Below, piece after piece: positions 1 to 60,315 of a stretch of DNA of 64,000 nucleotides. This DNA is from a virus. Its lineage: Duplodnaviria > Caudoviricetes. The translations under genes were made by a program, and so were the position numbers. Numbering within the stretch: position 1 is the first letter of the stretch; the number at the start of each line of letters is the position of its first letter. Location of the stretch: the IMG/VR virus record IMGVR_UViG_3300028603_000017, positions 96,001-160,000 of that record. One strand, given 5' to 3'. A model generated the notes under the pieces. It had not been told where the DNA came from and ran no database searches. It saw only the letters and a program-made list of their open reading frames with translations.

Positions 1-789
1 TTTGGTTATGAATACCTCTTCATACAAACGATCAACAATTTGTTTTTGCTCATCAGTAATGCTGGTACTGATGATCACATCTACCGGCTTAAAGGGTAGA
101 TCCATCATTTTCACATTTAGATTAAATTCTCCTAAATCAGGTTTCTTGATTTTAAGTGCTTCAAGAATTGGATTGACTTCCAAATCAATCTTTACGTAAA
201 GATTATAGGTATCGTCTGGATTAAAGAACACATCTACTTCATAAAAGGTATCTTGTACTTCAATATCTTCTACACCAGCAGATGTTTTAATTTGTACTGA
301 TGTGACAGGAAACTTAAATCTGTCTTTAATCATACCGTTATTAGCGATTTGACTAAAGTTAATAAAAGTCATTTCATCGATAGCGTTGGTTTGTTCAACG
401 GATCCATCAATACCTGCATTCTTTGATTTCTTTTTGAAAGTCATTGAGTAAGTAGGCTCTAGTCCATCTTTGACAGTCTTGCGTACTCTGACTTTACCTT
501 TTTGTGTTTTGATTTCCCATTGATCGTGATGCTCTTTAGCGCTAGCTAGTTTTAAACCATCAGGGTTTGTCATCTTAGCATAGAAAACAATTTCGTCTTC
601 TCGATGCGCTTGTTTTTCATCAGCAGACACTGCATTTTGCTGATGCTTAGCAATATCTTCTTTGGTAGTCGCTGTAGGATTGGGTGTGTCGCTGGTTTGA
701 CTAGCAGCTTCACTGACTTGATCAGCATTTGAAGCATCTTGATCTTCTTGCTCCATAGCTGCTTTTAGTAATCTTTTTTTGAAACTCAT
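1..789 (-). CDS. CYTH-like (triphosphate tunnel) domain protein with acidic N-terminal propeptide, probable head protein; runs off the window start and is absent from the ORF track
   Basis: Manual translation from ATG at 789: MSFKKRLLKAAMEQEDQD...HREDEIVFYAK...KVRVRK...YSMTFKKK...GMIKDRFKF...FYEVDVF...VKIDLEV, open to position 1. The ExE, RxR, KxR and EVD motifs are typical of the CYTH fold. Confidence 0.65.
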   Translation of the reverse strand, partial: MSFKKRLLKAAMEQEDQDASNADQVSEAASQTSDTPNPTATTKEDIAKHQQNAVSADEKQAHREDEIVFYAKMTNPDGLKLASAKEHHDQWEIKTQKGKVRVRKTVKDGLEPTYSMTFKKKSKNAGIDGSVEQTNAIDEMTFINFSQIANNGMIKDRFKFPVTSVQIKTSAGVEDIEVQDTFYEVDVFFNPDDTYNLYVKIDLEVNPILEALKIKKPDLGEFNLNVKMMDLPFKPVDVIISTSITDEQKQIVDRLYEEVFITK

Positions 790-796
790 TATATCC

Positions 797-1327
797 TCAA
801 TACGGTGATGATGGTGTATCCGTGAAAATTATTCGTAATACTTCTTGTAGAGTATTCATGATACCTGTTAAAGCACCATTTTCATCTAAGACACCTTTTT
901 GTAAGCTCATATAAGTAAAGATGCCTATAATCAATACGATAATACCAACAAGCACTATAGTTCCATAAAACTTTAGCTTGAATTGAAGATTATCTCTATT
1001 GACTTGGTGTCTTTCCTTATAACTGACTGGTCCTAAACTATCTAAGTTATATAGCTCAGGATCATTTTTTATAGTCATCATCATACCGAGTAGAACTCTA
1101 GCCTTATCTTCCTCACTTAAAGCTAGAAACCCTTTATAATAAATTTCTTTATTATCAATCAGTAAAGGCGAGTGTTCAGTAATATTGAATTCTCTTTTGT
1201 CAATACCTGGATCTAGTTGGGTACTGTCTCCAAATTCAAGATTAGACTCTTGTTCATCTTTTCCTAAATGAGAACCTATCTGAGATTTCGACTTATCTGA
1301 ATCACCTGTTAAGCTATCATTGCTCAT
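797..1327 (-). CDS. Membrane protein with a C-terminal TM helix; holin-like candidate in the lysis cluster
   Basis: One strong hydrophobic helix (FYGTIVLVGIIVLIIGIFTYM); directly downstream of the spanin pair. Confidence 0.45.
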   Translation of the reverse strand: MSNDSLTGDSDKSKSQIGSHLGKDEQESNLEFGDSTQLDPGIDKREFNITEHSPLLIDNKEIYYKGFLALSEEDKARVLLGMMMTIKNDPELYNLDSLGPVSYKERHQVNRDNLQFKLKFYGTIVLVGIIVLIIGIFTYMSLQKGVLDENGALTGIMNTLQEVLRIIFTDTPSSPY

Positions 1328-4102: not shown

Positions 4103-6952
4103 TTAAGACCAGATGATTTGCTGACCATTATAGGAGTAACCAACGATCTTGTATTCAGCTTCACCTTCAGAATTTACTAAGCTAAAACCATTAAACAAAG
4201 ATCCTGGTAAATAAGGATGATGGTGAGGAGTTCTGCTTATCACATCTTTGACAAAGTTTAAAGAAGCCTTATCATGGACATACTCCATATCTGTTAGACT
4301 AATTTCTTCATTGTCATAAATAAAAGCATTAATAGATACTTCATCTTTGGTATAAATAAAAGCATCTAAAGATACACCAAACTGCAAATTAGTATCCATG
4401 TAGGTAGTACTAGCTGTAACTTTATTGGCAAAATACTTAAAAGCATTAGCTGGAGCTGTTCCAGCAAATAGCTTGAACAAGTTACCATCAGAGTCACCAG
4501 CAAAGTAATTGTAAGCATTGAGTACATTCTCACCTAAGTTAGGCAGCATTGCTTCTAATTGACCAGTAAGCAAAGTCCTAATTCTGGCATAGGTTTGATT
4601 AGGAATGAACTTATAGATAAATGAGTCTGTCTTTGGTTTATTAATAATAAACGTTTTAAAGCCAGGTAAATAGTTTTTCATCAAAAGCAGATTCAAATCA
4701 ATCTTGCCTTCTGATGGATCTGGCACAAACAGATTTTGCCAGACATCTTTGATAGACCACTTCTCTTGTTCTGTTAAATCGTTAAACGACTCATATTGAG
4801 GAAAAGCTAAGATATTCGTACTTTCATCAGGATTGACAAAAGTTTGATTAACCATTATTGTACCTAATCTGATAATATAGTTCTTTATGGTCTCTACTTT
4901 ACCAGGCCTGACTTTAACTGGAATATCTATTTCTTGATCTGCTGTTACAGATACATCTGTTTTAGGATCAATACCAATAGGCATTACGGGCACAATAATG
5001 TCTTCATTTTCCTGACTGACAACATTGGTAACGTAAGTATTGATAATCTCAGCTTCGTGATGAGCTATTTGTTTTGTTTTTAAATCATCTACACGAATAG
5101 CTGGCCAGCCTATCTTTCTGATAGTCCTAGAATTAATCTCTGTCAGTATTTGAATAGAATAGCTAGATAACTGCGTTAAAATAGCAGTCATAGCTTTTTG
5201 TAATTCAGACAGTTGTGTTTTGGTATAAAAGTCTCCACCTGTAGCATTCTTAAATATTTCTAGGTGCAAAGCTTCATACATGGCAGTATCGTAATTTGTC
5301 ATTACGATACCCTTAGCAGCTAACCATTGATCGTAAGAGTTATAATAAACACCTTCACGATCATTAATAATTTCTAGCGTATCTATTTCTTTGGTTTCAT
5401 ACAGGTTATCTACAATAGCCTGCATTTGACCACGCTTACCGTGGTTTTGCTCATTGGCTAAATAGATAGTCTGCGCTTTATGAGCAAAGTAAACATCTTT
5501 GACCAAATCACCAAAAGCTTCTACAGAGATATCTGGCAGCTGAGCTACCTTTGTGTCTATAAGCAATTGGATAAGATCATCTGGTACAGTCTCGTTATTA
5601 ACCAATTGTCTTAGATCGTCAACAGTTTGAGTTTCTATTCTGGTGGATCTAAATACACGCAATTTAGGTATTTTATCTAAATTAATACCCATTGACTTAC
5701 AGTAGCAATAAAACCAAAACACATAGCTATCAAAAGCATTTAGTGATCTGTCTACGGAAGTAACAGGATCTTTAAAACTAATAACAGCAGTGTATAGATT
5801 CTCAGAGGAGTTCCTTAACCAATGTCCTAATTTGATTTCGGTTAGGGTATAAGTCTCACTGTCACTATAGTCAACAATAGAAGATTCTAGATCTTTGGTT
5901 AAAACTACGCTAGATAAAGAGTTTTTAAACTTCTTATCTATTTGAGTTTGCGTATCAGCTATATATTCAGGATTACCTACTGTTAATAGTTTTTCTTTAT
6001 TAAGTAGCTCATCCAGATTGATTGTAGGTCTTGCTTTGGTTGTTTGAGAAAATACATCAGTAATACTTCTTCTTCTAAAAGAAGTATTAGAATAATAAGT
6101 AGATTCTAAATATGAGGTATCGTGCCTCATGGTGTATTCAGAAATTGGAATATTGCGCTCTGTCAATAAGCGATCAATTAGCCAATTAAGAATCTTATTC
6201 TTACCAGCATTTCTTTCAATAAAGCAAATGTTTCTATACAGGAACAATCTTTGCTTTAGATTAAGGTGATCTAGATATTGGTCTAGATAACCATGAGATG
6301 CTAAGTATTGCCTAACATGAAAACTGTGAGCTTCTCTTGTTTTACAGGCTTGTAATCTTAAATTCAGAATAAGAGGTATTAAGTGGAGATACATAATACC
6401 TAGATTAGCAGCAGCGTAAAGATCGTGAGCTTCATTGAACTGCTTATTATCCCATCTGAATTTATAGTTCTTAATCCAGTGCTCAATATTGAAAATGAGG
6501 TTTTCTTCATTTTCTTCTACTAAATATTCAGGATAAGCTAATACTGTACCATCTTCTGAATCAATCGCTTTATTAATATCCGCAGGATGCAAACAACCTA
6601 TAATGAATTGTTGCATATCGGGATAATTGGTAATTAACTCACGGTAATAGCGAGAGTTATACTTATAAGCATCTAGTGTTGCTGGGTGATTTATCAATGT
6701 CTGTCTATCAAATGTAATTTTCGATAGATCGTCCAATGATGTGATTTCTATAATAGGATCTGTAGGATGATACTGACCAGAAATATTAAGGTAATATTTC
6801 CATGTCGTTTTATCAAATGGGTCTGGCTCAGTACCATACAGCTCAGTGATTCTATTATTAATAACATCCGCTGAGCGTTCAGATTTTATTACGATTGTGC
6901 TAGCAAGCTCTATTACACTATCAATATATAGTTTGTAGTAATTTTGACTCAC
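4103..6952 (-). CDS. Large virion structural protein (phiKZ gp128-like), GTG start
   Basis: 949 aa; WKYYLNISGQYH, AHSFHVRQYLASHG and LFLYRNI motifs; divergent from the portal gene. Confidence 0.6.
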   Translation of the reverse strand: MSQNYYKLYIDSVIELASTIVIKSERSADVINNRITELYGTEPDPFDKTTWKYYLNISGQYHPTDPIIEITSLDDLSKITFDRQTLINHPATLDAYKYNSRYYRELITNYPDMQQFIIGCLHPADINKAIDSEDGTVLAYPEYLVEENEENLIFNIEHWIKNYKFRWDNKQFNEAHDLYAAANLGIMYLHLIPLILNLRLQACKTREAHSFHVRQYLASHGYLDQYLDHLNLKQRLFLYRNICFIERNAGKNKILNWLIDRLLTERNIPISEYTMRHDTSYLESTYYSNTSFRRRSITDVFSQTTKARPTINLDELLNKEKLLTVGNPEYIADTQTQIDKKFKNSLSSVVLTKDLESSIVDYSDSETYTLTEIKLGHWLRNSSENLYTAVISFKDPVTSVDRSLNAFDSYVFWFYCYCKSMGINLDKIPKLRVFRSTRIETQTVDDLRQLVNNETVPDDLIQLLIDTKVAQLPDISVEAFGDLVKDVYFAHKAQTIYLANEQNHGKRGQMQAIVDNLYETKEIDTLEIINDREGVYYNSYDQWLAAKGIVMTNYDTAMYEALHLEIFKNATGGDFYTKTQLSELQKAMTAILTQLSSYSIQILTEINSRTIRKIGWPAIRVDDLKTKQIAHHEAEIINTYVTNVVSQENEDIIVPVMPIGIDPKTDVSVTADQEIDIPVKVRPGKVETIKNYIIRLGTIMVNQTFVNPDESTNILAFPQYESFNDLTEQEKWSIKDVWQNLFVPDPSEGKIDLNLLLMKNYLPGFKTFIINKPKTDSFIYKFIPNQTYARIRTLLTGQLEAMLPNLGENVLNAYNYFAGDSDGNLFKLFAGTAPANAFKYFANKVTASTTYMDTNLQFGVSLDAFIYTKDEVSINAFIYDNEEISLTDMEYVHDKASLNFVKDVISRTPHHHPYLPGSLFNGFSLVNSEGEAEYKIVGYSYNGQQIIWS

Positions 6953-6980
6953 AATCTTCTACTCCAAAAGGTTTTCTCAT

Positions 6981-9629
6981 ATGACTTTAAAGAATGTTAT
7001 TTCAGCTGTCAACTCTAAAAAAGCAATACCGCATGTGGATTTAGTTGGTGACAGACCTGAGATTCCTGCCGCTATCAGTAAACTGATACTAGATCCAGAT
7101 AAGTCAGCCAGTTACGATAACAAAGGCAATAGAACAATATCAACAACAACTTCTACTGACTTTGTAGGTATTAGTAACGATATTGCTAATAGAGCCAGAG
7201 ATGCTGAAACTATTGTTGAGCTCTTTCCTGACATGGAATTGAGTGCTCAGATACTTATTTCGTCTATCCTATCTCCTAAGGATATGATGAATACTGAGCT
7301 TAATTTTATTTTGCAACCAGGATTAAAGGTATCAGAAATCTCAGCTCCTTTGATTGCCGAGCTAAAAGAATATTGTACCAAGGACTATAAAATTGAGCCT
7401 TTACTGCCAACAATACTCCGACGTATACTCTTTGAGTCAGGCTCTTACCCTGTGGCTGTAATACCTGAATCCAGTATTGATACAATTATCAATGGTCCTG
7501 CTGTGGCTAAAGAAAGTATTATGACCACACTTTCTAGCTACTCTGATCTAAATACTAAAACATTTAAACCTATTGGTATCTTAGGTCCTAGTGTTAAACA
7601 AGATACTGCATCACCGTCTTTGAAAGCTTCTTTAGAATCATTGGATGGTAACGGTTATCATGATTTGAATAGAACAGATAATACGATTGTCGGATTAGAA
7701 GTATTTGGTAATTTAATACCTAATGCTAAAAACAACACAGTTGTAACAGATAACTATAACTTACTCAAGTTACCGTTTGTTTTTGAGAAGCTAAAAGAAA
7801 AGACAATTAAGAATATAGTCTGTAAAGCTGCTGGTAAAGTTGTTGCTAATGAGAACTTTACCAAACTCACGGATTCTAGTTTAACTAATTTAATTTATAA
7901 GAATCCCAATAGAAACTCTACAAATATCATTAAAATCAAAACCAGTAATGAAACCAGTAGAGAAAATATTGGTGAGCCTTTGGTCATGCATTTACCTAGT
8001 GAAGCAGTTATCCCTGTATTCACACCAGGTAATGAAGAGCAACACGTAGGATATTTTGTTCTTTTAGATATGGAAGGCAATCCTGTTAGTAAAACTAACA
8101 TGGAAGGCGGTTATAATGATTTACAAAAGCGATTAAATTCTCAATCTACCAACATGAGCTCTGGTCTACTACAAAAAGCCAATATGCTCTTTGGTGATGA
8201 TTGTAAGTCTATTACACTGCAACAAGCTTCTCAAATCTATGCTGATATTATTGAAGCTGATCTGTTAGCTAGGTTAAGAAATGGTATCTATGGTAAAAAT
8301 CTCTCATTGGCTAAAAATCAAGAGATTTATAGACTCATGATGGCCAGAGCATTAAAGTCTCAATTTACTCAATTACTTTTTGTACCTATTGAGTTAATGA
8401 CCTATTATGCCTATAAGTTTGACAATCGCGGTATTGGTAAGAGCCTAAATGATGATTTGAGAATCTTAAACAGCATCCGTGCAATGGCTTTGTTTACCAA
8501 ATTAGCTGCTCAACTAAAAAATGCTATTGGTAGAACAGAAGTACAGCTAGAGTTAGATCCTAACGATCCTAGTCCTCAAACTACCATTGAAAAAGCTATT
8601 CACGAAATCACTCGTACCAGACAGCAAAACCTACCATTGGGCATTACTAGTCCCAGTGATTTAGCTGACTGGGTGCAAAAAGCCAATATGCAGTTTTCAT
8701 TTTCTAACCATCCAGGTTTGCCAGAAATGAAAATCAACTTCAATGAAGTCAATACCAACTACGTAGAACCTAGTACTGACTTAGAAGATGATTTGAGAAA
8801 ACGTGCTATTATGGCTGTAGGCTTAAATCCTGAAACTGTTGATAATGGTTTTTCAGCTGAATTTGCTACTACTATTGTAGAAAACAATATTCTGCTGAGT
8901 AAACGTGTATTACAAATTCAAGAAAAGTTCTTACCTTTGGTAACAGATAACATAAGAAAAGTTATCTCTAATGATGGTAGAGCTATTTATAAGCTTAAAG
9001 AAATTGTTTACAATAACTTTGACAAAGTCAAAGCTAACTTAAACGATGTTGAAGTAACAGACGAGAATAAAGACGTTATTGTTGATTTGTTGGTTCAAGA
9101 ATTCTTATCTAACTTTGAAGCAACGCTGCCTAAACCTAACAATATTACACTAGAAAACCAAATGACAGCGTACGATGTTTACGCTGACGCTATTGATAAA
9201 GTGCTGGATAACTTTATCAGCACTAACGTAATGCCCAGTACTTTGGTTGGTGAAGAGCTTAATCAAAAGGTAGAAGAAATTAAAACTGTTGTTAAACACG
9301 CATATCTGCGTAGATTCATGATTGACAACAATATCTTACCAGAACTCTTTGAGATGATGACTTACGATGATAAGGGTCTTCCTCTATTTGATCTGGAAGA
9401 TGTACAAAAGAACCATATTAACGATATGGCTAAAGCTATTATTAAACTATTTGATGCAGCCAAACCTATTGCAGAGGCTGCTACTAAAGATCTACAAAAC
9501 ACAGGTGTTTCTGAAGTAGATAGTACTACATCCACAGAAACCTCCAGTAATTCATCAACAAATGATGAAGATAAATCAGGTGGAGATAGTGATTTAGGTG
9601 GAGACGACTTTAATCTACCAGACTTTTAA
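6981..9629 (+). CDS. Portal protein (phiKZ gp129-like)
   Basis: 882 aa; LFPDMELSAQILISSILSPKDM and GYFVLLD motifs; acidic tail; size and head-to-head synteny match phiKZ-type portals. Confidence 0.65.
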   Translation: MTLKNVISAVNSKKAIPHVDLVGDRPEIPAAISKLILDPDKSASYDNKGNRTISTTTSTDFVGISNDIANRARDAETIVELFPDMELSAQILISSILSPKDMMNTELNFILQPGLKVSEISAPLIAELKEYCTKDYKIEPLLPTILRRILFESGSYPVAVIPESSIDTIINGPAVAKESIMTTLSSYSDLNTKTFKPIGILGPSVKQDTASPSLKASLESLDGNGYHDLNRTDNTIVGLEVFGNLIPNAKNNTVVTDNYNLLKLPFVFEKLKEKTIKNIVCKAAGKVVANENFTKLTDSSLTNLIYKNPNRNSTNIIKIKTSNETSRENIGEPLVMHLPSEAVIPVFTPGNEEQHVGYFVLLDMEGNPVSKTNMEGGYNDLQKRLNSQSTNMSSGLLQKANMLFGDDCKSITLQQASQIYADIIEADLLARLRNGIYGKNLSLAKNQEIYRLMMARALKSQFTQLLFVPIELMTYYAYKFDNRGIGKSLNDDLRILNSIRAMALFTKLAAQLKNAIGRTEVQLELDPNDPSPQTTIEKAIHEITRTRQQNLPLGITSPSDLADWVQKANMQFSFSNHPGLPEMKINFNEVNTNYVEPSTDLEDDLRKRAIMAVGLNPETVDNGFSAEFATTIVENNILLSKRVLQIQEKFLPLVTDNIRKVISNDGRAIYKLKEIVYNNFDKVKANLNDVEVTDENKDVIVDLLVQEFLSNFEATLPKPNNITLENQMTAYDVYADAIDKVLDNFISTNVMPSTLVGEELNQKVEEIKTVVKHAYLRRFMIDNNILPELFEMMTYDDKGLPLFDLEDVQKNHINDMAKAIIKLFDAAKPIAEAATKDLQNTGVSEVDSTTSTETSSNSSTNDEDKSGGDSDLGGDDFNLPDF

Positions 9630-32776: not shown

Positions 32777-34835
32777 ATGAGTGATTTCGCAGTTCCCTTT
32801 AATATTTATCTACTAAACCTCACTCCTGATAAGTTAGCAGGTATGATACCTGTGACTTCTTTGGATATATTTGAGGGTATGTCCAGGAATTTACATAATG
32901 ACGGTCTTTTCTCTATACCTATCTTTGGTAGAATCGGCTCTCCAGCTCGCACAAGCCGATATAGCTACATCGATATCAAGGTACCAATATTTCACCCAAC
33001 AATATATCGATCTTTGCTACAACTCAAGAGTCTTTATGGAGAAATCTTACAAGGCAAATCTTACGCTATTTGGAATGATGAAGTAAAAGACTTTGTTAAA
33101 TCATCTCAGTTAGATGGTGAAACAGGGTTTGAGTTCTTTGTTACGCATTGGAAAGATATCGTCTTTGAGTCTAGACCGAGTGACTTAAGAGCTAAAAATA
33201 TTGAGCTAATCGATAAGTACAAAGACATTGCTTTAATGGATAAAGTTATCGTAATGCCTGCTGGCTATAGAGATATTGAGATTGAAGACGATAGAATTAC
33301 CGTAAATGAAATCAACGATCTCTATAAAAAGCTCTTAAGAGTATCCAATACCATCTTACCTATTACAGTAAAAGACGATATTGAAATGCTCAATGGTGCT
33401 AGATACAGTATGCAAAATACATTCAATCAAATCTACGATATGATTGAGTCTATGATCAAAGGTAAGAAAAAGCTCATGATGGGTAAATGGGCTAGCCGTA
33501 AAATCTTTAACGGCACCAGAAACGTGATTACGTCTTCTGATATTCGCTCAGATGAATTAAATGCTCCCAATAACGTAGGTTTTAACGACACTATTTGTGG
33601 TCTATACCAATACATTAAAGCAACCCTGCCTTTAGCTATTGCTAAACTACGTACTGGTTTTCTAAGCAATGTCTTTGTATCTGCACAGTCACCTGCTTAC
33701 TTAACAGATAAAAAGACACTCAAGAAAGTAGAAGTTAAAATAGATAACGATGTCTTTGACAGATGGATGAGTGATGAAGGACTAGAAAAAGTCATTAGTC
33801 TATTTTCAGAAGAATCTATCAGACACGACTATTTAGAAGTCAATGATCACTATATTGGCTTAGTATATAAAGGACCTGGTGTCTTTAAATTCTTCCAAGA
33901 TATAGATGAGTTACCTGAAGAATATAGTAAGGACGATGTTTATCCGATTACTTTCACGGAACTCATTTACGGCTCTGTATACCATGACGCTCATTTATAC
34001 CCAGCTCTAGTGACACGGTATCCTGTCACTGGGTTTGGTAGTATCTATGTCTCTAATATCTATCTAAAGCCTACTCTTAAGGTAGAGAAAAGAGCTCCCT
34101 TAGGAGATGATTGGCAAATAGATCCCTATAAACCTATTGCTTATAACTTTCCTACTAAATCTGATTTCGTAAATGCGATGTCTCCTAGTCCGAGTAAATT
34201 ACAAAATCTCGGAGCTGATAATCGAATGGTATTTTCTTAATTTATTCATAGAACACTATGTTTAAAAGGTATGTTTACGTAAACATATTTGAAACTGTAG
34301 TGGGTTTCAAGAAAATCCAATCGTTTTGTCCTACCTTACAGTAATGTAAGGATAGAATCTCCTTTAATTGCTAGAAAGCCCTTAGAGCTTAACTACCACT
34401 GCGAGCAGTAATGCAAAGCGACAGCTCTACCTAATTGGTAAAGCCATGGTTTGAAAAGTGTTAAGATTGGGTAACCAGCAGCGAAGCTACCCTAATAGGT
34501 AGAACGTTCAACGATCAACCCTTTAGCAAGGTGTACACTCAAGTGAGTGGAAATGGGGAGCTACCTGTTATGCAGGTAGAAGATATGATCTACTCTATAT
34601 GGAAACATATAGCAGGCTATTGTGCCGGACTAAGATTAACGACCTTAGTTGAATACATAGGTTTGATGGAGATACTTGTTCACTAAATATTCTCTATTCT
34701 GATGAAAGTATAAGTGAGACTAGAAAATACATGCAATCTGCTAAGTATTACGTAGGCTCTAATGGTAAGATTAACTTTAGCGCTGAGACTGATACTACTA
34801 AATTCGTTTTACACAATCTAACATCGGATGTTTAA
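32777..34835 (+). CDS. rpoC: Virion RNA polymerase beta' catalytic subunit (phiKZ gp180-like), spliced join(32777..34219,34662..34835), 538 aa
   Basis: DGLFS.PIFG, GTRNVIT and TRYPV motifs. Exon 1 ends ...NLGAD and exon 2 starts FDGDTCS..., restoring the catalytic ADFDGD motif in frame. Confidence 0.9.
34220..34661 (+). ncRNA. Group I intron 1 (IA2-like, 442 nt, no endonuclease ORF) in the DFDGD motif
   Basis: P AATTGCTAGAAA, Q AACCAGCAGC, R GTTCAACGATCA, S AAGATATGATCT (P7 GATCA/TGATC). Exon-terminal U34219 pairs with G34328; terminal G34661; P2 with GTAA loop; P9 hairpin. Confidence 0.92.
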
Positions 34836-37800
34836 TATGGCAGCTCCTGCTATACCCTTTGAGAGTTACTATAGAAAAAACGGCCTAAGATCTCCTCAGT
34901 ATCTGATGGCTCCTAGGATGCCTAGTATTGAAAGCTTCTTTTTCCCTAAAGACTCTATTCACCATTATGTTGTTTATGATGGTGTGTCTAAGCATCCTGC
35001 TAGTGATGAGTACTTTTACAGAGATATTCAAAAGAAGATCTTTGTACAACATATTCCTGATATCAAAGATAATAAAGGCTCTCCTAGAAAATTAGCTATT
35101 CCTGTGATGCCTATGATTAGGGAATTTCACATCAGGAATAAAAGGTTTAGATTACTAGAAAAGCTCTCTAGTGTCAAGGATGAAAATACTTTAGTTACAA
35201 TTAACTATGGTTTTGCTCCTGTAGGATACAAATACGTAAAGTCTTTTTATGCTAACTACTACAAGTGGTGGAATATTGAAAAGACACTTTGGAGTACTTT
35301 AGATAGCATTACCAAAGAAAGTAATCGACAAAACTTTATCTTTACCAACTTACCTAAGACTTTACCTAGTGTATCTCGTCTTAATATGTTTTCTGATACT
35401 TTTAATCAGGAGATGGTAAAGCGGTTTAATACACCCGAATCTCTATTTCTATTAGAGATGTGGAAGTGGCTATCTGCTGAGAATAGAGGTAATTCTATCA
35501 TTGGCAACATGGGTCATAACCAATTAAAGAAAATTAATATTGTCATACAAGAATCTGGACGATATATATTGGTTAATCTAGGTGAGTTAAATAGCTGGAG
35601 AGCAGAAACTACTGATGTACCAGAGCAAAAGATACGGATTGACTCTAGTGCTTTACAAAAGCGATTCCTAAGAATGTTGATGACATTAATGGAAAACCGC
35701 ACTGTAGTAGACGCTCAATTGGTAGATGATGAAGTAGATGGTAATATTCCAGATACACCTATCGATAGCGATCCAGACCTGAGTGATCTAGATAGTCTAG
35801 AAAAAGATACTACCACTCCCACATCTGCACCATATGTAGATACAGATGCAGATATGGTAGCTGGTAAAGGCGATTTTATCAATCTGGATGAGAAAGACAG
35901 TGAAGTTAAAGAATTAACCAAAGCTGAGAAAATCAATGAATTAATTGATAATCTGGATAATGACCTACAGGCATTAGAGATTATTGAAAATGAAAAAGAC
36001 AATATTCTACTGGATGAGGAAATAGAAGATAAGAAGATTTCTAAAGAAATCTCTATCAGTCATTCAGATAAAGCTATTGAATTTGATTTCTTTAATAAAG
36101 AACTCAATCCTGAAGACAGAATTGTTAATCTCTGTAATGAATTAGCTGACGATGGGTTAATGACAGCTAGTGAATATAGGCGTTTAACCAATAATGCTGA
36201 TAATTATAAACGCTTGCCTAGTCCGTACGATAGTGGAAAATCATTAGCTGAATTTGGTGAAATTAAACCAGAAGAGATAGCTATTACTGAATCTGCTAAA
36301 ACAGTAGACAGGAACACCATTATTGATAAGACCATGTTATCATCTAGTCTATTAGACTTTGATGAAAGATACATTAAAAATATCTTACCTAAAGATATTG
36401 TCAATATGGTAACAGCTGCCCAAAATGCTGGATTCATTATATCTAAATACGAAGTAGAGCCTATTGAAGATATTCTAGGTAAATACGAATCTCACACTGT
36501 TCGCATTGCTCCTATTCAAGGTCAACCTAGTACTCTACGATTTAAGATACCTAAGGTTGAGGAAGACGGTGTTTATGTTAGCTCAGGTATCCGCTATAGG
36601 CTTCGTAAACAGCGGTTTGACCTTCCTATTCGTAAGATATCTCCAGATCGTGTTGCTCTATCGTCCTACTATGGTAAAACTCTAGTTACTCGCAGCGATA
36701 AGAAAGTTAATGATTACGGAGCATGGCTATCTAAAAACATAATTGCCAAAGCTATTGATAATACTGATCCTAATGTGATCAACTTATCTGCTGGTGATGT
36801 ATTTGTTAACGATGTAAACTTACCTAGAAGTTATACAGCTATTTCAATGGCTATTAGAGGATTTACCTCTAATGGATTTAACTTTAACTTTGATTATAAT
36901 AATAGAGTTGAGTTCTTTGGTCAGGAAAACATTGACAAGTATGAAAAAAATGGCTATACATTAGTAGCAGATAATGCTACTAATGAGTTTTTGGTCATTG
37001 ATCAAAATAATGTTCTATATAAAGTAGCTAACGATACTTTAGATCCAGTAGGTTCTATTGAATCCTTTATTGGTTTAGATATTGCTAATGCTCCTGTAGA
37101 CTTTGCTCAAATTAAAGTATTTGGCAAAAATATACCTCTGGTATTAATATTGGGCTATATGTACGGATTAGAAAATCTAATCAATGTACTAAAAGCCGAT
37201 GTCCGTAGAGTCTCTAGTGGTCAAAGACAGAATCTGCAAGAACACGAATACGCTATTGCTTTCAGTGATGAAACTCTGATCTTTAGCAAAGATGACGAAT
37301 TAGCTGCTATGATATTCTCTGGTTTTAGAGAATATGCTAAACATATCAGAAATTATTCTGTTTATACTTTCGATAAACCTAACGTTTATTTGAATGTATT
37401 AGAATCTAATGGAATTGGTATTAGGTACTTAAGAGAAGTAGATTTAATGGACAAAATGTTCGTTGATCCTATTACTAAAGAAATTTTAGTAGAGATGAAA
37501 GAACCTACTACTTTCAGAGGCTTGATTGTCAGAGCTGCCCAGCTGCTACTCAAAGACGCTCATCCGGATGCTTTAGATATGCAGTTCATGCGTATTAAGG
37601 GCTATGAGAGATTTGCTGGTGCTATATATGCTGAGTTAGTTAATTCCGTTAGAGAACATAACTCTAAAGCTGGTAAAGCTAATCAACAGATTGAATTACA
37701 TCCTTATGCTGTTTGGAAGAGGATTACGGCAGATCCTAGTATTAACTTAGTATCTGATATCAATCCGATTGAAAACTTAAAACAACAAGAAGCAGTTACT

Positions 37801-39768
37801 TATTCTGGTACAGGCGGTAGAGTATCTCGCTCGATGACAAAATCTTCTAGAGCTTATCACCCTAACGATATGGGTGTAATCTCTGAAGCTACTGTTGATA
37901 GTTCCGACGTAGCTATTAATACCTATACTTCTGCTGATCCTCAATTCGTATCACTACGAGGTAGGGCTAAGAAATATAACTTTGATGAACAAAATCCTAC
38001 TGCTGTACTAAGCACTAGCGCTTTAACTGCTGTAGGTAGTGATAGTGACGACCCCAAGCGCGTATTGACTTGCGCATTCTTCTCTAATTGCTGGAAACCC
38101 CTAAAACTAGTTAAACTACTGCGAGCAGTAATGCAAAGCGAATGTTTAAAAATTAACTAGATGTTACAATGGGCAATCAGCAGCTAAGCTGGCTGTTTAA
38201 CAGGCAGAAAGTTCAACGACTAGTCGAAAGACGTACATTCAATCGAATGGAAATGGGAAGACTACTTATTTAAGTAGAAGATATAGTCTGGCCTATATGG
38301 AAACATATAGCTGCGCGTAATGGCGCGAAACTACGCAATTGTATTAAGTTAAGACATTTAATACATTAGATAACGTAGTTTGAACACTCGCAAAATTTTA
38401 TTAATATTCAGAATACTCATTCGACTGCTTGTAGTGGATATATGCAAGCTCCTGTGCGTACTGGATATGAATCAGTCTTGGGTCAAAGAACTTCTGATCT
38501 ATTTTGTTATTCTGCTAGACAGAAAGGCAAAGTTATATCTAAGAAAGATAATAGTATTCTAATCGAATACGAAGACGGCACTCAAAAAGGAATACAGTTA
38601 GGTAGACGCTTTGGCGCAGCAGCTGGTCTAACTATTGCTCACAATGTTGTTAGCGATATGAAAGTAGGTCAAGAATTCAATCGTGGCGATATCATTGCTT
38701 ATAACGACGGATTCTTTGAAAAGGATATACTCAATCCTGATAATGTTATTTTAAAAAATGCTGTTCTAGCTAAAACCGTTTTATGGGAGTCTACTCAGAC
38801 TCATGAGGACGCTAGCAGTATTTCTAGGAAACTAGCTGATAAGCTTAGTACTAAAATTACTAAGGTCAAACAAGTTGTTATTAGCTTTGAACAAGAAGTT
38901 AAAGATATCTTAAAGCCTGGTAGTGACGTAGAGCATCAAACAATTCTATGTACAATTGAAGATCCCTTGACTTCAGGTGCTGGACTATTTGATGAAAGTA
39001 CTTTATCTACATTAAAAATGTTTAGCAATCAAACACCTCAAGCTAAAACAAAAGGTGTGTTAGAGAAGATTGAAGTTTTCTATAATGGCGAAAAAGAAGA
39101 CATGAGTGACAGCTTAAGAGCATTGGCTGACGCTGGTGATAGAGCTTTGGCTAGTCAATTCAGGTCTTTGGGTAAGCGCCCAATGACAGGTCAGGTAGAT
39201 GAGGGTTACCGTATTGACGGAGATCCTTTACAGTTAGATCACTTAGTTATTAAGTTTTATCTAACGACTGATGTGTCAGCAGGTGTTGGTGATCGACTTG
39301 GTCCTATTTGTTAGTAATAGCAAAATAGATTTCTCCTTAATTGCTGGGAACTCCTACTTCAGTAGGACAATCAGCAGCCGAACTATCTACTTATAGATAG
39401 AGGGTTCAACGACTATCCCCTAACCAGGGAGTACACTCAAGTGAGTGGAAACAGGAGACTGCCTGTATAACAGGCAGAAGATATAGTCTGCTCTGTATAG
39501 TAATATACAGCAGTACCTTATGGTACGGATAAGGATTAACGACCCTTATTGAACACACAGGAAAGGCGTTTTCGCTAATCAAATGAAGACCGTATTCTCT
39601 GAAGTTATGGATTACGAGATGAGAACAGAGTCTGGTGAAGAGATCGATGCTGTTTTCGGACAGAAGTCTATTGATGATCGTATTGTGTTGTCTGCCTTAA
39701 CAATTGGTACAACAAATACACTGCTTGATGTGATTGCTAAAAAAGCAGTCAAGATTTACGAAAGCTAA
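34828..39768 (+). CDS. rpoB: Virion RNA polymerase beta subunit (phiKZ gp178-like), spliced join(34828..38063,38393..39293,39562..39768), about 1447 aa (alternative start 34837)
   Basis: TYSGTGGR, YHPNDMGVISEATVDS, DDPKRV|NFINIQ, QTHEDAS and GD|KGVFANQMKT; the three ORF-track fragments join in frame. Confidence 0.88.
38064..38392 (+). ncRNA. Group I intron 2 (329 nt, lacks P2, no ORF), predicted terminal A instead of G
   Basis: P AATTGCTGGAAA, Q AATCAGCAGC, R GTTCAACGACTA, S AAGATATAGTCT. P1 GCGU/GCGC with U38063.G38072. The exact 3' boundary is inferred. Confidence 0.88.
39294..39561 (+). ncRNA. Group I intron 3 (268 nt, compact, no ORF) in the beta GDK motif
   Basis: P AATTGCTGGGAA, Q AATCAGCAGCC, R GTTCAACGACTA, S AAGATATAGTCT; U39293.G39301; terminal G39561; splicing gives GDKGVFANQMKT. 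Confidence 0.92.
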
Positions 39769-39770
39769 AT

Positions 39771-39965
39771 ATGAACGATAACCGTAAAATAACAGAAGCG
39801 TCTGTTTGCACCTTAGGGAATGCAGCAGATGTGGTTGCTAGAGTGATTCTTAATATTGCTGGTAATGATATTTCTACTAAACTCAGTGGAACTAACATGA
39901 CCATGAATTCTGTTAAGGAGCTGGCTTTGGCTAGATTTAATCTTAACCTGAGTAAGAAAGCGTAA
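39771..39965 (+). CDS. Small conserved hypothetical protein
   Basis: 64 aa with 2-nt spacing to both neighbours. Confidence 0.55.
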   Translation: MNDNRKITEASVCTLGNAADVVARVILNIAGNDISTKLSGTNMTMNSVKELALARFNLNLSKKA

Positions 39966-59905: not shown

Positions 59906-60262
59906 CTAACAATAACTCCTACTCTTACTCCTGTTATAGACTCTTCTCTCAAACCTATCTTTACAATAACTCTTATTACAGGACTTAATCTCATTAGGTA
60001 ACCATTGAAGATTACCAATATTGTCACATCCTCCACAAGCTAGAGGTATGACATGATCAATAGCAAATCCAGGACAGCTAACAGAGTGCTTACCTGTACT
60101 AGGGCAGGGATAGAGTTTAACAAAGTCTCTTAACACTTTAGTATCTCTTAATATCCTACCTCTATCATCTCTTTGGATATTGTTACATATCCTAGGATCT
60201 ATTATATCTTGAGCTTCTGTAGATATTGGTAATAACAGTAATATCAATAGCAAATACTTCAT
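59906..60262 (-). CDS. Signal-peptide-bearing, Cys-rich HNH nuclease (118 aa; ATG at 60262 preferred)
   Basis: MKYLLLILLLLPISTEA|Q signal peptide; PCPSTG...CPGFAIDHVIPLACGGCDNIGNLQWL HNH motif. Confidence 0.75.
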   Translation of the reverse strand: MKYLLLILLLLPISTEAQDIIDPRICNNIQRDDRGRILRDTKVLRDFVKLYPCPSTGKHSVSCPGFAIDHVIPLACGGCDNIGNLQWLPNEIKSCNKSYCKDRFERRVYNRSKSRSYC

Positions 60263-60277
60263 AGTCACTTTCACTAA

Positions 60278-60315
60278 CATATACTCCAGGTAGCTTATCA
60301 CTACCTGGAGCTATG
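60278..60315. terminator. CATA...TATG-flanked hairpin
   Basis: CATATA-CTCCAGGTAG-CTTATCA-CTACCTGGAG-CTATG. Confidence 0.65.

Follow-up and report, generated by a model that had tools for sequence, protein, structure and literature searches.

The window analysed here is a stretch of 64,000 nucleotides (nt) that corresponds to bases 96,001-160,000 of IMG/VR virus record IMGVR_UViG_3300028603_000017, a record of 261,198 bp that is judged to be 95% complete. Positions 32777-39768 of the window hold two adjacent genes on the plus strand, gene A followed by gene B, which encode the beta' N-terminal (beta'-N) and the beta subunits of the virion RNA polymerase (RNAP). The two genes are interrupted by three group I introns, one in gene A and two in gene B, none of which contains an open reading frame (ORF) for an endonuclease. 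The introns, which lie in a chimallin-encoding, phiKZ-like jumbo phage, are probably ribozyme-only members of a single mobile group I intron family. Endonuclease-free group I introns at the RNAP catalytic motifs of jumbo phages are a pattern that is already known.

The introns were identified with Rfam model RF00028 (Intron_gpI), which has a gathering cut-off of 50 bits, and all three matches span model positions 1-253. Searches by tblastn with the intron-less proteins FLC9 gp41 and gp40 and RP31 ORF039 and ORF038 place the exon junctions at 34219/34662, ~38061-64/38391-94, and 39293/39562 (a slash marks the point of insertion here and below). Intron 1 (34220..34661, plus strand, 442 nt) matches the model at 34285-34612 with 60.1 bits and splits GAD/FDGD, the 5' exon ending in GCT GAT and the 3' exon starting with TTT GAT GGA GAT. 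Intron 2 (38062..38390, alternatively 38064-38392, plus strand, 329 nt) matches at 38007-38310 with 78.8 bits and comes after DDPKR or DDPKRV in beta. Intron 3 (39294..39561, plus strand, 268 nt) matches at 39247-39510 with 81.6 bits and splits GVGD/KGVF, also in beta, at a site written GD/K below. Removal of the introns rejoins the exons in frame and the products match the intron-less homologues. The U.G pair at the 5' splice site and the terminal G are both present in intron 1 (5' splice site after U34219, terminal G34661) and in intron 3 (5' splice site after U39293, terminal G39561). The P7 helix is formed by GAUCA and UGAUC in intron 1 and by GACUA and UAGUC in introns 2 and 3, a double compensatory change which argues that the ribozyme fold is maintained. 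No endonuclease ORF was found inside introns 1, 2, and 3, where the longest stop-free frames are 65, 39, and 51 codons, respectively, and are thus too short to encode one. Conservation at the insertion sites was scored per nucleotide in 30-nt windows after the intron-less alleles (46 for gene A and 36 for gene B) had been aligned by codon. The intron 1 site is the second-highest conservation peak of gene A, in the top 0.9% of its windows; in gene B the site of intron 2 ranks among the top 2.9% of windows and that of intron 3 among the top 3.0%. The first-pass annotation of this DNA had described three introns of the same lengths that lack a homing endonuclease ORF and sit in the most conserved motifs, and both descriptions are borne out by the model matches, the mapped junctions and the conservation scores.

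Gene A consists of two exons and gene B of three, all on the plus strand. Exon 1 of beta'-N (32777..34219) has 481 codons, ends in ...LGAD, and matches phrog_2986 (E 1.5e-180) and residues 7-484 of FLC9 gp41 by tblastn. Exon 2 (34662..34835; FDGDTCS...LTSDV, 57 codons and a stop) aligns by tblastn with residues 485-538 of FLC9 gp41 and 485-540 of RP31 ORF039, and it overlaps the start of the beta gene. Beta exon 1 (34828..38061) starts at an ATG at 34828 or 34837, ends at C38061 or U38063, and matches phrog_3148 (E 0) and residues 2-1146 of FLC9 gp40. Beta exon 2 (38391..39293; (Q)NFINIQNTHS...AGVGD) covers phrog_3148 positions 1072-1356 and, by tblastn, FLC9 gp40 residues 1147-1447; it is 41% identical to phiKZ gp178 and 43-61% identical to 4 IMG/VR relatives. 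Beta exon 3 (39562..39768; KGVFANQMKT...KIYES, 68 codons and a stop) covers phrog_3148 positions 1362-1421 and residues 1447-1514 of FLC9 gp40 with 69% identity. Gene B therefore matches phrog_3148 in three separate ORFs. Pfam and PDB sequence searches of the exons gave nothing useful, which indicates that genes A and B encode very divergent proteins, and the assignments were made with PHROGs and hhalign instead.

PHROG 2986 and PHROG 3148 are both named 'RNA polymerase beta subunit'. The spliced product of gene A reads LGAD/FDGDT, which is the beta' metal-binding motif (N)ADFDGD, and since intron 1 splits this motif gene A is assigned to the N-terminal subunit of beta'. A profile of the beta family built from 24 intron-less relatives was aligned with residues 653-1107 of E. 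coli RpoB by hhalign (88.8% probability, E 2.5e-6, 354 columns). In this alignment DDPKR corresponds to RpoB D674-D675-A-N-R678 and GDK to D1064-K1065. K1065 of RpoB is among the lysines that form cross-links with the initiating nucleotide. The gene order, with an opposite-strand giant virion protein followed by A and then B, is common to the relatives and to phiKZ gp181, gp180, and gp178, and the GenBank annotation of several relatives names virion-associated RNAP subunits. The closest phages in culture are Burkholderia phage FLC9 (45% amino acid identity), RP12 and RP31 of Ralstonia, and LucasX of Xanthomonas, and beyond these >300 phiKZ-like jumbo phages match; a megablast search of the region against GenBank phages returned no match. 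A homologue of chimallin (phiKZ gp54) is encoded at genome positions 167,632-169,293 (E 1.9e-30, 28% identity over residues 14-577), which groups the phage with the nucleus-forming phages (Chimalliviridae-like).

The insertion sites were surveyed in 74 related IMG/VR loci collected by a profile search, together with phiKZ, PhiPA3 (from the literature), and LucasX, with FLC9 gp41 and gp40 as references. Four recurrent insertion regions were found at the same nucleotide positions among the 74 loci. Site A (D/FDGD, the intron 1 site) is occupied in 15 loci, and 12 of these 15 insertions contain an endonuclease ORF. Site B1, which lies after ...KQRGD and is empty in the window, holds insertions in 8 loci, 2 of them with an ORF from a different family. 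Site B2, at the DD motif, is occupied in 20 loci (endonuclease ORF in 11), and site B3 (GD/K, the intron 3 site) in 13 loci (endonuclease ORF in 2). B2 comprises two positions. The first, B2a, lies directly after DD and accounts for most of the relatives' insertions, with HNH-bearing introns in 11 related loci and ORF-less introns in 7 more; the second, B2b, lies 11 nt downstream and is used only by intron 2 of the window and in two loci, L028 and L046, where the L046 intron is the second of a tandem pair. When 21 of the related loci that bear introns were searched with Rfam, 30 group I intron matches fell inside the insertions, which confirms introns of this type in most of them. The ribozymes of all sites form one family that is ~70-80% identical in the core, and BLAST comparisons of the ribozymes intermix the sites without clean site-specific clades. 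The ORFs tested in the long insertions were HNH_3 in 10 of 10 cases, usually with NUMOD1, NUMOD4, or I-HmuI-like domains, and the ORF of locus L014 is of the same kind.

Mapping the three insertion sites of the window against the endonuclease-bearing introns of relatives, a check proposed with the first-pass annotation, gave an exact correspondence at introns 1 and 3 and a decayed counterpart at intron 2. Loci L014 and L083 carry HNH_3/NUMOD introns exactly at GD/K. The intron of L028 at the intron 2 position is 637 nt long and contains a 92-amino acid endonuclease remnant that clusters with HNH endonucleases. LucasX has an ORF-less intron at the intron 1 position. LUCX_6, which lies between the two RNAP genes of LucasX, was considered as an endonuclease and rejected because it weakly resembles phiKZ internal head proteins. 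Relatives have between 0 and 6 introns in the two genes. Locus L046 has six of them, all ORF-less group I introns (1718-2533, 4490-4856, 6322-7000, and 7900-8191), so that the window is not extreme. In L046, tandem pairs surround micro-exons of 12 nt (FDGD) and 11 nt (CCAAAACGAGT, P-K-R plus GT). In several D/FDGD introns the HNH_3 ORF is antisense to the host gene (L063 1719-2816, L064 1718-2815, and L066-L070 ~10-1130, minus strand), and the D/FDGD intron of L063 has an HNH_3 ORF on each strand. The site B1 introns of L012 (3613-5070) and L028 (3027-4502) contain ORFs of 485-491 amino acids with repeated treble-clef/DUF723-like units that are not HNH_3.

The closest characterized counterpart of intron 1 is found in phiKZ, in the same gene with the same synteny and at the same insertion point, GAD/FDGD. 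In the phiKZ genome (NC_004629; L089 8159-9786, minus strand) gp180 ends in ...LGAD and is followed by gp179, an HNH_3 protein, and then by a 92-bit match to RF00028. The exon that starts with FDGDTVSF precedes gp178 and is unannotated in RefSeq. The phiKZ ribozyme belongs to the same family as those of the window, and the GATTAACGAC hairpin close to the 3' end is a shared feature. An HNH_3 ORF of 357 amino acids lies in the phiKZ intron, whereas intron 1 has none and instead contains, after its 5' splice site, a further ~100 nt that are non-coding. Twort orf142 and T4 nrdB are phage genes with group I introns that are ORF-less or endonuclease-defective. They likewise combine several small self-splicing introns without a working endonuclease in one essential phage gene; they differ in the host gene, and in the present case siblings that bear an endonuclease are documented for relatives at identical sites.

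Related loci show that the endonuclease is a separable module. The flanking exon is at least 97% identical in L063, L069, and L083, and all three have an intron at GD/K. The introns of L063 (7901-8268, 368 nt) and L069 (7901-8254, 354 nt) are ORF-less, and that of L083 (7901-9513, 1613 nt) contains a 409-amino acid HNH ORF. The three introns are 94-98% identical outside a ~1.26-kb block that starts some 20 nt into the intron. Within the same clusters some members have no insertion at site B2 and others have one with an endonuclease; together with the matched introns that have and lack the block, this indicates that gain and loss of the elements happen over short times. The favoured explanation is that an HNH-driven intron family homes into a few conserved RNAP sites, which would be D/FDGD, DD/, DDPKRV/, GD/K, and one more that is empty here. 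The endonuclease gene would have decayed or been deleted, or would never have been gained, in the three introns of the window. The bare ribozymes could persist because they would remove themselves from the pre-mRNA and restore the catalytic motifs, and because a deletion inside an essential active-site codon would be viable only if exact to the base.

Several observations weigh against this account. The presence or absence of the block fits a later gain of the endonuclease as well as its loss. One contig of 51.7 kb and several short contigs from RNA libraries are unspliced across the exon-intron borders, which most likely reflects DNA carry-over. Among the contigs of four RNA-labelled runs over the region none skips an intron; these libraries evidently contain DNA or precursor, so that they speak neither for nor against splicing. 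The published long-read transcriptome of phiKZ detected no splicing at its predicted introns (PMC10914365). The junction of intron 2 is also irregular, since its in-frame junctions each break one rule, either the U.G pair or the terminal G, and both give an intron of 329 nt. The window reads CGC GT/ATTGAC at the 5' side of intron 2 and ...GAACACTCG CA AAATTTT at the 3' side. Combining U38063 with G38390 would be out of frame. The first in-frame option uses U38063 and terminal A38392 and yields KRVNF; it keeps the U.G pair and also the 6-nt spacing after GAAYA that is found in introns 1 and 3. The second option uses C38061 and terminal G38390 and yields KRQNF; it keeps the terminal G and places the GCGC guide sequence in an alternative register. 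The counterparts in L028 and L046 are canonical, as they follow the GT of the Val codon and end in G before N-AAT-TTT. A 5' splice site at U38070 was rejected because there is no guide sequence between U38070 and P3. The downstream beta frame is conserved, and consequently one of the two options, or something unusual, must operate.

The sequence predicts that intact catalytic motifs of the virion RNAP need all three splicing events, as the first-pass annotation had pointed out. This dependence could be read as a regulatory use of the introns, in which the three obligatory splicing events time or dose the production of the packaged enzyme. The splicing of phage group I introns responds to growth state, according to work cited in PMC10914365. 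Most relatives have the same enzyme free of introns and, with intron numbers that run from 0 to 6, the pattern fits parasites rather than a conserved control, so that a regulatory role is very improbable. In all strains of the phage sampled from other metagenomes the three introns are present and contain few changes. Of the words sampled from the window sequence at 33900-39800, 79-100% were present in metagenomes from landfill, wastewater, sludge, compost, and bioreactors, which belong to 11 studies, and an identical 30.5-kb contig (L011) comes from another IMG sample. Exact-pattern scans of IMG/VR for the three spliced junctions found no intron-less allele of the same phage, and the spliced-junction pattern of intron 2 was not found in JGI metagenomes; both are weak evidence.

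Genome-wide there are five group I introns, and each lies in an RNAP catalytic motif. The two outside the window (RF00028, 78.9 and 93.7 bits) are also ORF-less and lie at genome positions 171,280-171,800 (~1279-1790 in L004), in the non-virion beta'-N gene (phrog_2987) beside the chimallin gene, where they surround a 12-13-nt micro-exon, GATTTTGACGGTG (DFDG). It had been suggested that the introns may be mobilised in trans by free-standing endonucleases encoded outside the window, and a search of the full genome for such enzymes was proposed. The search did reveal one clear HNH_3 ORF, which is free-standing, 189 amino acids long (223,976-224,545), and assigned to phrog_15471. It lies ~90 kb from the RNAP genes and has no NUMOD-type DNA-binding modules, and its best blastp hit among intron endonucleases has an E value of 0.05, with nothing significant beyond the HNH motif; the suggestion that the phage's own free-standing enzyme drives the introns is thus poorly supported. 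The tail of the 189-amino acid protein is Cys-rich and helix-turn-helix-like, and the stretch around it is gene-poor. No GIY-YIG, LAGLIDADG_3, NUMOD1, or NUMOD4 domain was found in the 261-kb genome, and tblastn of the relatives' intron endonucleases against the whole genome gave no real match. A minus-strand ORF of 131 amino acids at 59906-60301 of the window has a signal-peptide-like N-terminus and a weak, sub-threshold match to HNH/HNH_5 (PF01844). A wider form of the proposal adds a second source, with the intron endonuclease of a co-infecting relative cutting the allele of a third phage and so spreading the ORF-less introns. The presence of ORF-less and ORF-bearing copies of one intron in near-identical phages is what a shared endonuclease would produce. 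Mobilisation in trans, by either route, is nevertheless improbable given the properties and location of the sole HNH_3 ORF and the domains absent from the genome.

The first-pass annotation had also proposed that the introns may be retained because they break nuclease target sites. In this form of the argument selection keeps the ORF-less introns for destroying the target sites of homing endonucleases from co-infecting jumbo phages. Interference of this kind was shown in the group of phages to which the chimallin homologue assigns the present one. PhiPA3 gp210 is an HNH endonuclease in a group I intron of the virion RNAP beta gene, inserted directly after DD (PMC11620839), and it nicks the virion RNAP gene of phiKZ and blocks virion production (Birkholz et al., Science 2024; PMC11620839). 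The PhiPA3 intron (gp211, gp210, gp209) lies in the DD(A/P)(N/K)R motif of the beta gene, at the position of E. coli RpoB D675, which is also the motif of intron 2; the gp210 site is a different one, 11 nt upstream, and intron 2 has no endonuclease gene. Cognate endonucleases do exist for the sites in the window, as endonuclease-bearing introns (phiKZ gp179, L014, and L083) occupy exactly the sites of introns 1 and 3 and the decayed one of L028 that of intron 2, so the proposal survives the possibility that no such introns target these sites. The exons around the L014 intron differ from those of the window at 2 of 24 nt at GD/K. The confinement of all five introns to RNAP catalytic motifs and the failure of the pattern scans to find an intron-less allele are in keeping with protection as well. 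A more specific version holds that the introns are domesticated shields, in which ribozyme-only introns kept in the catalytic codons of both RNAPs, five in all, erase the target sites while sparing the phage the cost of a nuclease.

The premise that an intron disrupts its homing site stands for some enzymes only. I-PfoP3I is unable to cut intron-plus DNA, and I-HmuI and I-HmuII cut DNA whether or not it holds the intron (PMC3428280). The latter are the type enzymes of the architecture seen here. The relatives' intron ORFs share the HNH_3 and NUMOD architecture of I-HmuI and I-HmuII as well as I-BasI, which are encoded in DNA polymerase introns of SPO1-like phages, and they have weak matches to the NUMOD-like domain of I-HmuI. 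The target gene of those systems is different, and the shared biology is the competition between co-infecting phages. The behavior of I-HmuI and I-HmuII weakens the assumption that an intron alone confers immunity. Additionally, twin introns 9-12 nt apart occur at B2 and A in L046, at A in L056, and in the non-virion RNAP gene of the phage itself. An occupied site thus does not close its neighbour, and PhiPA3-type enzymes, which act 11 nt upstream, would not necessarily be stopped by intron 2. In this protein the relatives with endonuclease-bearing introns share only 39-55% identity with the window, and ~40 of 64 related lineages have no intron at any of the four sites.

The part of the proposal that concerns cognate endonucleases therefore stands. 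Selection for a shield is an unlikely reason for their retention, and domestication in the catalytic codons of both RNAPs is equally doubtful. Since the introns occupy their sites, the intron-less target sequence is gone there, and the alleles of the phage are probably spared by most cognate endonucleases of co-infecting relatives. Such resistance is likely to be a by-product rather than the reason for keeping the introns. The selfish homing cycle of a mobile intron family explains the same data and is the simplest account.

The survey has consequences for the annotation and for the biology of this group of phages. Annotations of such phages routinely cut the beta'-N and beta genes short at the intron, and phiKZ gp180 is one example. 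In uncultured chimalliviruses, the survey maps at least four to six hot spots for homing in the virion RNAP genes. It also provides matched introns from near-identical phages, some having the endonuclease gene and others lacking it, and twin introns around 9-12-nt micro-exons. This material would allow a clean test of the question raised by Birkholz et al. (2024), namely whether intron endonucleases are weapons and bare introns are shields.

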